Positions 22,803-63,855 of a stretch of DNA of 64,000 nt are shown in pieces. The translations under genes and the position numbers were made by a program. The first letter of the stretch is position 1. Each line of letters starts with the position of its first letter. Under the pieces are notes generated by a model. The model did not search any database. It had not been told where the DNA came from and saw only the letters and a list, made by a program, of their open reading frames with translations. The stretch is from Ginglymostoma cirratum (lineage: Eukaryota): positions 9,852,694-9,916,693 of the forward strand of contig JAHRHZ010000002.1 in assembly GCA_024137785.1 (NCBI GenBank), read 5' to 3'.

Positions 22803-22847
22803 CTCAGGTACTGACAGAACTGTCTGTGGACGAGGTTTCACCAAGAG
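22803..22847 (-). CDS. MHC class I-like exon 7 (Ser-rich tail + stop)
   Basis: Acceptor CTCTCCTTCCATTAACAG|CT. Translation [14 protein letters not shown] then TGA (22806-22804), followed by a G|GTATGA donor, implying an untranslated exon 8. Confidence 0.85.
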
Positions 22848-61800: not shown

Positions 61801-63855
61801 GAACAAGGCAGTGCGGCCCATAGCTTCAGGCCAAATTCAGTGGTGGGTTCTGATTCTAAGTGTGTGAAGTTGGAACACCATTCAGGGGCCAAGTGGCAAA
61901 TGTGGATGCATTGAGTCACCGCCCACTGGCAGATACACCATCGGTGGTATCTCTAAAGTTTTTGGACACACTTCTAGTTACAGCTGCACAACATCAGACT
62001 TCGGATGCAGAAAGATCCTTTCCTGGAAAAACTGAAAAAGCTGGTGGTGATGGGGGAAACCAAAGGGTCGTCATAATCAGAATTGAAATCCTTTTGGACA
62101 TGGAGAATCCAGATCACAGTAGGGGATGGCATATTATTATGGGGAGCAAAAGTGATTGCCTGGAGCAAAGGTCGCTACCAGATACTGGCTGAACTCCACC
62201 AGGGTCATTCAGCAGTTACCAAAATGAAGATGTTAGCAAGATATTTTGTCTGATGGCCTGGACTGGATGCCAGCATAGTTGTGTCGGTGGAGCAGATTGC
62301 CAACCAGGACAAAAATTATCACCAGCAGCTCCCCCACATTTGTGGAAATGGCCGGGTAAATCCTGGACTTGGTTACACATCGGCCAAGCAGGTCCTTTCA
62401 TGGGCTTAATGTTCTTCATTAATGTGGACACCTACTCAAAGTGGTTGAACATGAAAACATGACGCTAGAAAGATTGCACCCACCTATTGTAATACATGGA
62501 CTCCTGGAGGTTTTGGTCACAGGGCCCTTTTACCAGCAGAGAATTTAAGCATTTCCTAAAATCAAATGGTATTGAACATTTAAGAATAGCTTCACACCAT
62601 TCATCATCTGGCAGTCCAGCAGAAAGAGCAGTCCAAACGCTAAAGGCATACTTAAAGAAACAGCCTACAGCTTCGATAGAGACCAAACTGTCCCAGCTCC
62701 TATTTGATTATATAACATTCATGCAACGACAGGAATAGCTCCAGCAGGGTTGCAGGTGCGGAGAAGACTCCTCGCCACGTTAAACCTGATCTTTTTGACT
62801 TAAGTGGGAGAGTGAAATGGCATCAGAATGGCAATGCCAGACACAAGACTCTGCTAAGCGAGAGAAACAGTTTACTTTAGGGTATGAAGTTTAGTATAGA
62901 AACCATGGGAATGGTCCTGCATGGGTAAGAGCCACGGTTGGCATGTGGTCAGGTCTAAAGTTTGGGTAGGTGCGACGGCCCTGACCATGCACAGGGACCA
63001 TATGAATGCTGCTAACTCACAAACAGTATGGGTCCAAAATGTGAGATGACAAGGTGTAGAGCGGGATGAACACAGCAGGCCAAGCAGCATCAGAGGAGCA
63101 GGAAAGCTGACGTTTCGGCACTAGACCCTTCTTCAAATTCTCCAGCATCTGCAGTTCCTACTATCTCTGGGTCCAAAATGTGCCTGGCTCCTTCACAGAT
63201 TTTCTGACTGTTCCGGAACCCGTGGGTTCTCCCTCTCTGTCAAGCGTTGAAGAGATCTCGGAATCTAAAATGGACATGGTGGATGTCACTACTGCAACAC
63301 CGCACAAAGAAGAGAATGCATTTCTTCCAAGATCCTCCATGCACAGGAGGTGCGCTACTGTGCCTTATATGTCACCCATAACTGTGGCAGGGTTGAAAAA
63401 ACCTGACCTGGTGCTAAAATGCCTCAGGAGGAGCTACAAAAAAAAAGAGAACTGGTCTATGTTCTCTGACTCAGAGGGTGAGGAATGTGGTGATTGTAAA
63501 GAGCTCAGCCAGGTGGACCTTAGTTAATATGAGTTCCCTGACTGGGACAGTTAATCTGGTCTGATCAGGGAGCCCTGGCTGACAGATATAAACAGGAGTG
63601 TCAGACGTCCTGTGCATAACAATGGATCAATTAAATGTGAAAACATGAAGTCAGATAAATCACAACCCCATAAACCATTCTGACAGGAACATAATCCAGA
63701 GTCACAGCCCCAGTACAGAATGGCACCGTCGGCCCTCACACCCCAGTACCCACGGATTGAGGACTAATGCCCCAGCACCCAGCCTGGTTCCACCCCCATT
63801 ACTTACCTGCAAAGAGCTCTCCACACAAAAGCCCCAGCACTATCAGTCCGATCAT
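22804..63855 (-). CDS. Non-classical MHC class I-like heavy chain, 7 coding exons, 342 aa (join of 63855-63807, 38466-38206, 38031-37759, 37635-37372, 23872-23768, 23257-23225, 22847-22804)
   Basis: All junctions are GT-AG and phase 1. Exon lengths 49+261+273+264+105+33+44 = 1029 nt with no stop until TGA. The protein shows a leader, the HSLRY start of alpha1, an NQT glycan site, alpha2 and alpha3 Cys pairs, an Ig C1 GFYP motif, a TM helix and a Tyr/Ser tail. Caveat: an N-gap at 49903-49912 lies between the leader and alpha1. Confidence 0.9.
23225..23257 (-). CDS. MHC class I-like exon 6 (cytoplasmic, Tyr-containing)
   Basis: Acceptor TTCATTCTTTTACAG|TA, donor G|GTAAGC. The 33-nt length is the canonical class I exon 6 length. 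Translation [11 protein letters not shown]. Confidence 0.88.
23768..23872 (-). CDS. MHC class I-like exon 5 (connecting peptide + transmembrane)
   Basis: Acceptor TTCTCTCTCATCACAG|TC, donor G|GTAGGA, 105 nt, phase 1-1. Translation [35 protein letters not shown] (hydrophobic helix then charged stop-transfer). Not in the ORF track's reported frame. Confidence 0.9.
25540..25780. mobile_element. Inverted pair of Penelope-type tails (hairpin); similar pairs at ~29745-29925, 39417-39600 and 63045-63168; singletons at ~8080, 13977, 17915, 21833, 24690, 24982, 33045, 43900, 54130 and 58795
   Basis: Head-to-head copies of the same ~100-130 nt tail. Confidence 0.7.
27416..27645 (-). mobile_element. 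5'-truncated HE1-like SINE (another at ~4576-4740)
   Basis: ATCATAGAATCCCTACAGTGTGGAAA tail and core. Confidence 0.8.
27655..28200 (+). mobile_element. RTE-like LINE, 3' remnant (related copy at ~40070-40360)
   Basis: LPKK..F and [15 protein letters not shown]...W remnants, typical of the RTE ORF C-terminus. Confidence 0.55.
31339..31692 (+). mobile_element. HE1-like tRNA-derived SINE
   Basis: Head GTGGCTCAGTGGTTAGCACTGCTG with A/B boxes, core GGAGTTTGCAC.TTCTCCC, and a CR1-like tail GGGATTCT. Confidence 0.88.
34767..35895 (-). mobile_element. L1/Tx1-clade LINE, 3' fragment
   Basis: Antisense ORF2 C-terminus remnants (AAACTTGTTATAGTTTGGCAG, CAACACTTGGTTGAAGTCAACTC) and an A/T-rich 3' tail; resembles shark Tx1-like elements. 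Confidence 0.55.
35903..36226 (+). mobile_element. HE1-like SINE
   Basis: Same head, core and tail as 31339. Confidence 0.88.
36230..36905 (+). mobile_element. CR1/HER1-type LINE, 3' fragment
   Basis: ORF 36316-36663 [15 protein letters not shown]...[10 protein letters not shown]...GDLIEVYKI; tail TATGACTCTATG. Confidence 0.9.
37372..37635 (-). CDS. MHC class I-like exon 4 (alpha3 Ig C1 domain)
   Basis: Acceptor CTTTTTCTGTCCTTCAG|TT, donor G|GTAAGA, 264 nt. Translation VAPIVSF...[21 protein letters not shown]...[10 protein letters not shown]...[10 protein letters not shown]. Confidence 0.96.
37759..38031 (-). CDS. MHC class I-like exon 3 (alpha2 domain)
   Basis: Acceptor TTGACAG|GG, donor G|GTGAGT, 273 nt. 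Translation [13 protein letters not shown]...YGWDG...[23 protein letters not shown], with both cysteines. Confidence 0.96.
38206..38466 (-). CDS. MHC class I-like exon 2 (alpha1 domain)
   Basis: Acceptor TGTGTTTCAG|AC, donor G|GTGAGT, 261 nt. Translation [38 protein letters not shown]...EGPGLW...NQTD. Confidence 0.96.
40603..40905 (+). mobile_element. HE1-like SINE
   Basis: Same head, core and tail. Confidence 0.85.
41530..42020 (+). mobile_element. CR1-type LINE, 3' end
   Basis: LGLFSL...[13 protein letters not shown] followed by the typical 3' tail. Confidence 0.85.
42021..43295 (-). mobile_element. CR1-type LINE fragment with a 270-aa RT remnant
   Basis: ORF 42455-43267 GPDQVYPR...[11 protein letters not shown]...NYRLVSLTS...SQHGF...CLTNLI...[12 protein letters not shown]; frameshifted downstream. 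Confidence 0.92.
43340..44420 (+). mobile_element. CR1-type LINE, 3' fragment with a nested Penelope-type tail (~43900-44035)
   Basis: Decayed C-terminal RT motifs and a GTTCTATATTCTA tail. Confidence 0.8.
44775..45895 (-). mobile_element. CR1-type LINE (second subfamily), 3' fragment
   Basis: ORF 45149-45460 [14 protein letters not shown]...[14 protein letters not shown]; tail CATAAGAACATAA on +. Confidence 0.85.
45895..46516 (+). mobile_element. CR1-type LINE, 3' fragment (internally deleted)
   Basis: ORF 46013-46429 [10 protein letters not shown]...[13 protein letters not shown]. Confidence 0.85.
46700..47400 (-). mobile_element. Older CR1-type LINE, 3' fragment
   Basis: Decayed antisense CR1 3' sequence (TGGCTTCCAGAACTGAACACAGTACTCCAGCTGTGG). 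Confidence 0.65.
47975..48322 (-). mobile_element. Deu-domain SINE (SacSINE1-like); an older copy lies at ~17130-17430
   Basis: Reverse complement of the 20278 element. Confidence 0.75.
48463..48780 (-). mobile_element. HE1-like SINE within the minisatellite
   Basis: Reverse complement of the same consensus. Confidence 0.88.
49903..49912. other. Assembly gap (10 N) inside the minisatellite
   Basis: Run of n characters. Confidence 1.
51909..54395 (-). mobile_element. Relatively young CR1-type LINE (~2.5 kb) inserted in the minisatellite
   Basis: Consecutive frameshifted ORFs 53454-53804, 52930-53457 ([11 protein letters not shown]) and 52342-52770. Tail CATAGAACAGTACAG; nested Penelope tail at ~54130-54225. 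Confidence 0.92.
54395..55745. repeat. 39-bp minisatellite array, blocks 2-3
   Basis: The cleanest units start at 54661, 54700 and 54739 (period 39). They give 13-aa repeats ([13 protein letters not shown]) in spurious ORFs. Interrupted by a Gypsy remnant at about 54775-55165. Confidence 0.9.
54775..55165 (-). mobile_element. Second, shorter copy of the same Gypsy remnant
   Basis: Aligns by eye to 55770-56240 (e.g. AGCCAAGCCTCCA...ATACTGACAAATG, CCGCACCCCTTGTG, GTCATGAACA). Confidence 0.6.
55770..56480 (-). mobile_element. Decayed Gypsy pol (RNase H-like region) remnant
   Basis: The minus strand reads [15 protein letters not shown] followed by an IQRF-like motif after a frameshift. A shorter paralogous copy lies at about 54775-55165. 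Confidence 0.55.
57810..60300 (+). mobile_element. Nested CR1-type LINEs (older endonuclease-to-RT fragment with a younger 3' fragment at ~58005-58645 and other insertions)
   Basis: GVIYRPP-like endonuclease remnant, ORF 58058-58381 [15 protein letters not shown], and [20 protein letters not shown] remnants near 60 kb. Confidence 0.8.
60921..61213 (-). mobile_element. HE1-like SINE directly downstream of the tRNA-Asn pseudogene
   Basis: Reverse complement of the consensus; its head starts about 16 nt after the tRNA 3' end. Confidence 0.88.
61229..61302 (-). tRNA. tRNA-Asn(GTT) pseudogene
   Basis: 74 nt: GTCTCTGTGGTGCAAGTGGTTAGTGGCTTCGGCTGTTAACCGAAAGGATGGTGGTTCGAGCCCAGCTGGGGACA. The anticodon arm TTCGG-CTGTTAA-CCGAA is intact. 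About 11 differences from the vertebrate tRNA-Asn as I recall it disrupt the D, T and acceptor stems. No CCA; TTTT about 12 nt downstream. Confidence 0.85.
61548..63612 (+). mobile_element. Internally deleted, decayed Gypsy/Ty3 LTR retrotransposon (two partial LTRs, RNase H and integrase remnants)
   Basis: Related LTR starts TGTAGTGATTGTAA (61548) and TGTGGTGATTGTAA (63486), with a purine tract just before 63486. Frameshifted pol motifs include [33 protein letters not shown] and [17 protein letters not shown]...AERAVQTLK. Confidence 0.85.
63807..63855 (-). CDS. MHC class I-like exon 1 (signal peptide [16 protein letters not shown])
   Basis: ATG at 63855 opens a hydrophobic 16-aa leader ending G|GTAAGT (perfect donor, phase 1). 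It joins AC of the alpha1 exon to give Asp (DTHSLRY). Confidence 0.85.

Follow-up and report, generated by a model that had tools for sequence, protein, structure and literature searches.

The gene at positions 22804..63855 of the window, a 64,000-nucleotide stretch of nurse shark (Ginglymostoma cirratum) DNA, almost certainly encodes a non-classical MHC class I heavy chain of the UBA lineage. It is intact, spliced and monomorphic, and the pocket that would take a peptide C-terminus is hydrophobic. Judged by its residues, the molecule may present hydrophobic ligands of a few kinds, such as a lipid or an acylated peptide, to invariant lymphocyte receptors; we put the probability of this reading, and of a hydrophobic ligand class as such, at about 0.45. 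A ligand other than a conventional peptide is suggested on the same grounds. UBA is a multicopy class Ib lineage whose cluster is flanked by C4 and rxrb (PMC10751288); as other copies show equal anchor loss, the sequence finding is in itself ordinary. Our literature search found no publication on this paralogue (Almeida 2020/2021, the Almeida thesis and Bartl 1997 lay outside its scope and may include it) and no UBA ligand or function.

Gene structure and transcripts

The gene lies on the minus strand, its 1029-nt coding sequence (342 aa plus TGA) running from 63855 to 22804 in seven exons. The original prediction had correctly described a complete 342-aa reading frame, and the five motifs searched for are all present; its seven introns have to be corrected to six, each bounded by GT-AG. 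Exon 1 (63807..63855, 49 nt) encodes the leader peptide and is preceded by a predicted proximal promoter and 5′-UTR (63856..64000). This stretch has a homologous counterpart at the canonical UBA paralogue, G000:C2:9950085-9950283, which was the sole other match in the genome search and is 75% identical over ~190 nt. Intron 1 (38467..63806) measures 25.3 kb, a length made uncertain by a 10-N gap at 49903-49912, and carries LINE reverse-transcriptase fragments (RVT_1 matches at 42455-43312 and 52933-53469). The alpha1 and alpha2 domains are encoded by exons 2 (38206..38466) and 3 (37759..38031), both matching Pfam MHC_I, and exon 4 (37372..37635) encodes alpha3, a C1-set Ig domain (Pfam C1-set) that is UBA-like in type. 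Exon 5 (23768..23872, 105 nt) supplies the connecting peptide and transmembrane segment, exon 6 (23225..23257, 33 nt) a cytoplasmic stretch with a retained tyrosine, and exon 7 (22804..22847, 44 nt) the cytoplasmic end and stop codon. The first AATAAA past the stop (22312..22317) is a candidate polyadenylation signal, by pattern only.

Introns 1-3 are spliced out in contigs from three studies (X1, X2 and X4), and intron 4 in one of them. The contigs skip introns 2 and 3, while their loose ends read across the exon 1-exon 2 joint in all three runs and, in X1, from exon 4 into the first bases of the transmembrane exon. None of the sequencing runs listed as matches to the gene is on record as RNA, and the spliced joints themselves are the transcript evidence. 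Introns 5 and 6 are assigned from splice sites and the zebra shark protein P0071, so exons 6 and 7 should be read as predicted. A processed pseudogene was rejected as the source of the spliced contigs, since exon searches gave one 100% place for each exon among the matches listed. An eighth small exon within intron 4 was also rejected: a pattern scan returned no candidate, the frame closes anyway and X1 joins exon 4 directly to the transmembrane exon.

The gene is apparently weakly expressed. Its contig depth was 23.5 against at most 955 for the canonical paralogue in one study, 11 against ~1000 in another and 932 against 5,000-12,000 in the remaining one, and 17 of 400 raw reads matched it at 99% or more. 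It is monomorphic in 3/3 contig runs, with no difference over ~537 nt of alpha1-alpha2, where classical UAA is highly polymorphic; the sample is small, the runs possibly include the genome-source animal or a single population, and contigs lose rare variants. The canonical UBA locus, in contrast, differs from the reference O19479 at 8/176 alpha1-alpha2 residues plus one indel, whereas this gene is invariant across three studies and has the lower contig depth.

A branch within the UBA lineage

In a tree of alpha1-alpha2 sequences (68/78 rows; 10 with ectodomain cover below 90% were left out), the gene falls within a 51-row clade that includes nurse shark Gici-UBA (O19479, identical to AAC60347) and horn shark O19480 (support 100/98), outside the UAA-type rows. 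Its sister is zebra shark P0071/P0003 (100/100). The alpha3 tree, using 26/68 rows, likewise groups it with UBA (91/90). Identity over alpha1-alpha2 is 67-69% to canonical UBA, 47-55% to UAA-type rows and 33-37% to the UDA-type row; over alpha3 it is 84-89% to UBA rows (74/86 to the canonical paralogue, 72/86 to O19479) against 66% to UAA-type rows (58/88). The UBA resemblance that had been proposed from the alpha3 start is now firm. A 'divergent unnamed sublineage' survives as a branch inside UBA, made up of this gene and its zebra shark orthologue, and not as a new lineage.

The orthologue, known only under an automatic RefSeq name, is 95% identical (alpha1 82/86, alpha2 86/91, alpha3 82/88; 15 ectodomain substitutions) and also carries L59, L84, G122, I143, N146, L147 and F159. 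Among annotated proteins, neither the protein searches nor the 90% cluster, which has two members, revealed an orthologue beyond zebra shark.

The genomic neighbourhood is that of UBA genes only, with four copies (one broken) at C2:9.73-9.97 Mb and two broken copies at 8.57-8.61 Mb; other class I lineages lie on the same contig at 0.67 and 4.8-6.0 Mb. The canonical paralogue, at G000:C2:9.94 Mb and 50 kb from the gene, matches nurse shark UBA (AAC60347) and agrees with the UBA reference of PMC10751288 at 84/86, 84/90 and 83/86 residues. On the c4 side the published UBA synteny is matched by two C4-like thioester genes, one at C2:10.35 Mb and one at 11.09 Mb (0.45 and 1.2 Mb off), although the C4 label rests on one exon: the thioester exon of the second gene, 68% identical to that of the first, matches C4 best (2.6e-14 vs 1.8e-9 for C3), while the last TED exons of both genes match C5 best. 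No rxrb was seen on C2 among the 29 matches listed in a PF00104 genome search, in which the best candidates alone are scored, and genome searches found no intact classical UAA.

Groove residues and their probable remodelling

Residues were numbered as in HLA, by eye, after the HLA-A2/Gici-UBA alignment that PMC10751288 provides as supplementary file 10. All nine anchor states originally described are borne out: Y7, L59 and L84 in exon 2, and V123, I143, N146, L147, F159 and Y171 in exon 3. Two of nine peptide-terminus anchors (Y7 and Y171) are thus retained, as is W167; all four C-terminal anchors are lost, together with Y59, E63 and the Y159 hydroxyl. K63 and R70 in exon 2 and G122 and E163 in exon 3 complete the picture, and the N86 glycosylation sequon and the C101-C164 disulfide are retained. 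With its invariance and its place outside the UAA-type rows, the anchor count upholds the view of a non-classical molecule. That the anchors are near-invariant in classical class I has to be qualified for position 123, which is L in five shark classical-type rows (P0045, P0047, P0050, P0052 and P0054).

Contrary to what had been implied, the losses do not carry equal weight. Among the 51 UBA rows Y59 occurs in none, T143 in four and K146 in five, and since they are so rarely present their loss is a family trait. R84 is kept in 37 and W147 in 34, with both missing in 11. In the aligned sequences, the marks of this branch are R84L, W147L and D122G. The last of these, at a beta2-microglobulin contact, had been overlooked: it is limited to the gene and its zebra shark orthologue, the other 65/68 rows having D or E.

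For the groove we used 43 positions and pocket lists that we take to apply from HLA structures, mapped by eye. Relative to the canonical paralogue, 22/43 groove positions but 33/133 positions elsewhere have changed (p=0.002). The dN/dS ratio over alpha1-alpha2 is 0.39; within the groove dN (0.35) does not exceed dS (0.69), which lends no support to positive selection there. In the tree, the stem of the branch has 0.25 changes per site and its tips 0.02-0.035. Between the two sharks the groove differs at 4/43 positions, all conservatively, and the surface at 5/134; this conservation (9 differences) is no stronger than that of another UBA pair, L024/P0035 (13), and dS to the distant paralogue L024 is saturated. 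A duplication inside the UBA cluster may have been followed by fast change, with groove positions hit twice as often as others, and the remodelled groove would then have been maintained.

The hydrophobic lining is marked in the F pocket (hydropathy 2.41, canonical UBA being at about 1.0) and moderate over the whole groove, whose hydropathy of 0.82 ranks fifth of 66 rows and lies ~1.5 sd over the UBA mean (0.25, sd 0.37); peptide-type rows reach 0.49-0.58. Polar or charged residues are retained (K63, R70, N114, N146, N152, Q155 and E163), and F74, Y77, Y116, W156 and F159 are bulky, of which the first four could fill the groove.

Possible ligands and alternative functions

An aliphatic chain would occupy the pocket formed by L84, L95, V123, I143 and L147, R70 could hold a polar head, and the UBA-wide K63/E163 pair would cover the N-terminal end. 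The heavy chain would associate with beta2-microglobulin, and D122G might make this contact looser.

Unlikely, though the best placed of the alternatives, is a peptide binder that holds the N-terminus through Y7, Y171, W167 and F159 and lodges a hydrophobic side chain in the F pocket, while the peptide C-terminus is left without an anchor or extends beyond the groove. In its favour are the retained Y7, W167 and Y171, the two intact disulfides and the classical fold; the peptide-type shark class I 6LUP (52% identical to the orthologue model) is both the top PDB match of the alpha1 exon and the best structural match, and the frequencies of R84 and W147 across UBA point to an ancestor whose peptide groove was still intact in part. 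The missing anchors stand against it, and K63 with E163 would probably crowd the N-terminal pocket. Comparison of folds did not discriminate between ligand classes, an MR1-like metabolite presenter among them: the orthologue model lies at 1.7-2.2 Å rmsd from MR1 chains and 2.8 from 6LUP, the UAA-type chain that served as control at 1.9-3.1 and 1.1, respectively; VIA-align Z is 26.4-27.9 for MR1, HLA and shark chains alike, and an rmsd taken over whole chains is possibly affected by the alpha3 hinge. Less probable again is a ligand-free surface protein in the manner of HFE, FcRn or MIC, with a filled groove, a germline receptor and altered beta2-microglobulin dependence. The bulky groove residues would suit it, as would an orthologue surface as conserved as the groove and the change at residue 122, which belongs to the beta2-microglobulin W60 hydrogen-bond network according to PMC10288639; yet mean groove residue volume (163) resembles that of canonical UBA (166-169), Q96, D119 and G120 are retained and change since the duplication has been densest in the groove.

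The remaining alternatives are far weaker than a hydrophobic-ligand presenter. Low depth and broken UBA copies close by might suggest a decaying duplicate, transcribed at a low level after selection had gone, but the open frame, canonical introns, spliced transcript, dN/dS ratio against the paralogue and a conserved orthologue in another genus with the same substitutions make this very improbable: the gene is in all likelihood functional and not a pseudogene. A separate class Ib lineage of UDA, UEA or UFA rank, or a divergent UAA allele, is more improbable still; the modest alpha1-alpha2 identity to canonical UBA and the lack of an intact UAA in genome searches could point that way, but both were rejected on the nested tree position, the identities, the UBA-type alpha3, leader and promoter, the place in the UBA cluster and monomorphism.

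Relation to known class I molecules

Like other elasmobranch UBA, the gene lacks Y59, T143 and K146 and has K63 and E163; from the UBA reference it departs further in lacking R84 and W147, in G122 and in its much more hydrophobic F pocket (2.41 vs 0.95). With shark classical UAA (6LUP, AF220063) it has the fold, domain layout and Y7/W167/Y171 in common, but in the PMC10751288 alignment none of the nine anchors is missing from UAA, which a review describes as polymorphic. Shark UEA/UCA and the CD1-like UFA/UGA are likewise non-classical with anchors lost, and UFA/UGA are reported, from a personal communication cited in the review PMC12562908, to bind lipids; these are separate lineages elsewhere on the contig, and their references resemble, by eye, other loci.

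Chicken YF1*7.1 (MHC-Y), an analogue but no orthologue, provides a precedent: according to PMC2998441 and PMC12212280 its scaffold is classical, its groove hydrophobic and its helices tethered over the A pocket by a Lys-Glu pair, and it binds lipids and N-myristoylated (acylated) peptides. YF1, however, keeps Arg82/Thr139/Trp143 in its F pocket, and the acyl chain goes into A′, so that the polarity is reversed, the greasy end being the F pocket in the shark gene; this difference weighs against the hydrophobic-ligand reading. A carpet-shark UBA branch with a lipid or lipopeptide groove, its acyl pocket at the C-terminal end, and a looser beta2-microglobulin contact is, in this full form, a doubtful proposal from sequence comparison. 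If it were true, and given similar greasy grooves on separate Mustelus and ray branches, UBA would have given rise to non-peptide presenters more than once, in addition to the CD1-like UFA/UGA. Since the paralogue is single-copy and monomorphic, has an orthologue that is conserved and an F pocket that is extreme, and lies close to a less-altered UBA gene, the two offer a clean pair in which to study the shift of a classical class I groove to non-peptide presentation.

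Gene structure and transcripts

The window gene is an intact, spliced and invariant UBA paralogue whose remodelled groove is common to another genus. Its coding sequence on the minus strand (22804..63855) comprises seven exons, 1029 nt encoding 342 amino acids plus the stop, and six introns, each GT-AG; the seven introns of the original prediction were a miscount. Exon 1 (63855-63807) is followed by exons 2 (38466-38206) and 3 (38031-37759), both Pfam MHC_I, exon 4 (37635-37372; Pfam C1-set), the transmembrane exon 5 (23872-23768) and exons 6 (23257-23225) and 7 (22847-22804); five searched peptide motifs share one minus-strand frame at 37.6-38.3 kb. 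Intron 1 holds LINE reverse-transcriptase fragments (RVT_1; 42455-43312 and 52933-53469) and a 10-N assembly gap (49903-49912).

The exon 2-4 stretch is present in 7 of 13 listed sequencing runs, and four runs were compared with window 37300-38500. In contigs of runs X1, X2 and X4, which come from three studies, introns 2 and 3 are spliced out; the loose ends continue into exon 1 in every one of these runs and, in X1, also into the transmembrane exon. The splicing for which the original prediction proposed junction reads as a check is therefore supported for introns 1-4, while introns 5 and 6 rest on the zebra shark orthologue. Over 38205-38469 and 37759-38030 these contigs, from runs that may include the genome's own animal, carry no other letters. 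Neither classical polymorphism nor a lack of spliced transcripts, the two outcomes named as refuting the original prediction, is seen in these runs. The gene is tentatively regarded as weakly expressed, contig depth being a poor gauge and the tissues of the runs not on record: alpha1-alpha2 depths are 23.5, 11 and 932, versus at most 955, about 1000 and 5,000-12,000 for paralogue contigs, and 17 of 400 raw reads in run X9 are at least 99% alike to it (370 are 90-95% alike).

At window 37636, 48 loose ends of X9 give a consensus (agreement 0.72) that by eye runs from the end of the alpha1 exon of L022, the canonical UBA paralogue, straight into the final 16 nt of that paralogue's alpha2 exon. 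This form would be in frame and without nearly all of alpha2; since the joint lacks a GT donor, it could stem from an allele with a deletion or from an artefact of the library.

Placement within the UBA family

From 78 gathered sequences, three from the genome, 10 were left out for less than 90% ectodomain cover, giving a 68-row tree. In alpha1-alpha2 the gene is nested (100/98) in a 51-row clade, with a few isoform duplicates, that includes the nurse and horn shark UBA sequences O19479 and O19480, which bears out the earlier suggestion that it is possibly UBA-like; the 17 rows outside it were given lineage labels here, based on anchors and resemblance to supplementary references. It is 67-69% identical to canonical UBA in alpha1-alpha2 and 84-86% in alpha3, and 47-55% identical to UAA-type rows in alpha1-alpha2; that so divergent a copy represents a separate lineage is most improbable. 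A review treats UBA as a family that derives from UAA and has expanded. The family is known and the gene is a further member; a literature search, whose coverage lacks the two main lineage papers and Bartl 1997, returned nothing on this copy.

Its sister is the zebra shark orthologue P0071/P0003 (two isoforms; 100/100), with identities of 82/86, 86/91 and 82/88, a stem of 0.25 and tips of 0.035 and 0.019. This shape is not unique, because the carpet-shark UBA pairs L024/P0035 and P0011/P0013 also have a long stem with short tips.

A tree of alpha3, built from 26 of the 68 rows, also places the gene in UBA, where branching lacks resolution. Against L022, dS is 0.17 in alpha3 and 0.45-0.50 in alpha1 and alpha2 (p=0.01), and the low value suggests that alpha3 has been swapped among UBA copies. 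The alpha3 exon plus flanks (window 37300-37680) is 86-88% identical among this gene, L022 and the nearby copies L023 and L024, and their alpha1-alpha2 regions 70-75% or less; alpha3 gene conversion among the four is likely.

Anchor residues and groove chemistry

Residues carry HLA numbers read by eye from supplementary file 10 of PMC10751288, where HLA-A2 is aligned with reference sequences of the shark lineages. All nine original residue calls (Y7 and Y171 kept; 59, 84, 123, 143, 146, 147 and 159 replaced) were confirmed, and W167 is also retained. Across the 51 UBA rows Y59 is kept in none, T143 in 4 and K146 in 5, so these losses are family traits; R84 is kept in 37, W147 in 34 and Y159 in 34. 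R84 and W147 are both absent in 11 rows, and all four C-terminal anchors in 9, three being this gene and the orthologue's two isoforms and the rest Mustelus and sawfish; 11 rows keep at most two of nine anchors, partly owing to truncated models. K63 (46/51) and E/D163 (47/51) are UBA-wide. Only the window gene and its orthologue have D122G, and the remaining 65 of 68 rows carry D or E; according to PMC10288639, D122 belongs to a hydrogen-bond network with beta2-microglobulin W60.

Groove chemistry was compared over 43 positions and pocket lists based on HLA structures. Averaged over the groove, hydropathy is 0.82, which ranks fifth among 66 rows (UBA mean 0.25, sd 0.37; peptide-type rows go up to 0.58), and the F pocket reaches 2.41 versus about 1.0 in canonical UBA. 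The gene differs from L022 at 22/43 groove positions versus 33/133 elsewhere (p=0.002), and from the orthologue at four groove positions, all conservatively. Against L022, however, groove dN (0.35) is lower than groove dS (0.69), and overall dN/dS is 0.39.

Possible function

The favoured reading, at roughly 45%, is that the product would reach the surface with beta2-microglobulin and show a narrow hydrophobic ligand set to invariant receptors. The analogy is with chicken YF1*7.1, which according to PMC2998441 and PMC12212280 has a classical scaffold that takes up lipids and myristoylated peptides, although its acyl chain lies at the opposite end from the pocket proposed here. Binding of peptides without C-terminal anchoring is a less probable alternative. 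Rather unlikely is a ligand-free molecule recognized by a receptor, and a decaying copy is very improbable. The orthologue, modelled with AlphaFold2 (pLDDT 81.8), shows a class I fold with shark class I structure 6LUP as best match. In rmsd the model is nearer to MR1 chains than is the one control folded, of UAA type; Z-scores are tied and the domain hinge may account for the difference, so that the comparison does not separate the ligand classes.

The UBA cluster and other class I loci

The window lies at 9.85-9.92 Mb of contig C2 in the searched genome (G000), where two exon searches gave at least 21 and at least 13 class I-like places. L022, 50 kb from the gene, matches O19479 at 84/86, 84/90 and 83/86 residues, and the supplement of PMC10751288 gives O19479 the label UBA (AAC60347); other loci by eye resemble the UAA-2, UDA and UGA references of that supplement, as expected for nurse shark or a very near relative. 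L024 has three open ectodomain exons on the opposite strand, L023 is interrupted by stops and its exon 3 measures 272 nt; another two UBA copies, both broken, lie at 8.6 Mb. Two thioester genes are found at 10.35 and 11.09 Mb (best matches: thioester exon to C4, last TED exons to C5). The surroundings fit, at the c4 flank, the multicopy UBA-only cluster flanked by c4 and rxrb described in PMC10751288; rxrb was not located, none of the 29 PF00104 matches listed lying on C2.

At the position of the window gene's donor, the L022 leader exon runs into GG in place of GT (L027:4098, G000:C2:9950097 region), an assembly error or a variant in a seemingly well expressed copy. L022 and O19479 differ at 8/176 alpha1-alpha2 residues and by an indel of one residue within the alpha2 helix; the canonical locus may be modestly polymorphic, in contrast to the window gene. 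L024 (G000:C2:9.73 Mb) is very divergent, carries W146 and S63, and retains T143. Zebra and epaulette shark have close orthologues of it, P0035 and P0041 (stem 0.59), so that these copies make up a second UBA branch that is conserved. Among the genome matches listed, none is an intact classical UAA gene; the nearest to it are UAA-2-type copies at C2:0.67 and 0.77 Mb and, on contig C146, a UAA-like copy with stops.

A divergent class I gene lies on contig C197 (L069:2774-3055 and L070:1276-1545; G000:C197:370.8-379.5 kb). No alpha1 was found in the 20 kb examined, and by eye there was no match to the supplement references. Its alpha2 shares about 45% of residues with the best of the queries tried and by eye lacks T143, K146, W147 and W167; its alpha3 is 70% identical to the UAA-2-type protein P0057, and a third C4-like gene lies about 250 kb away.
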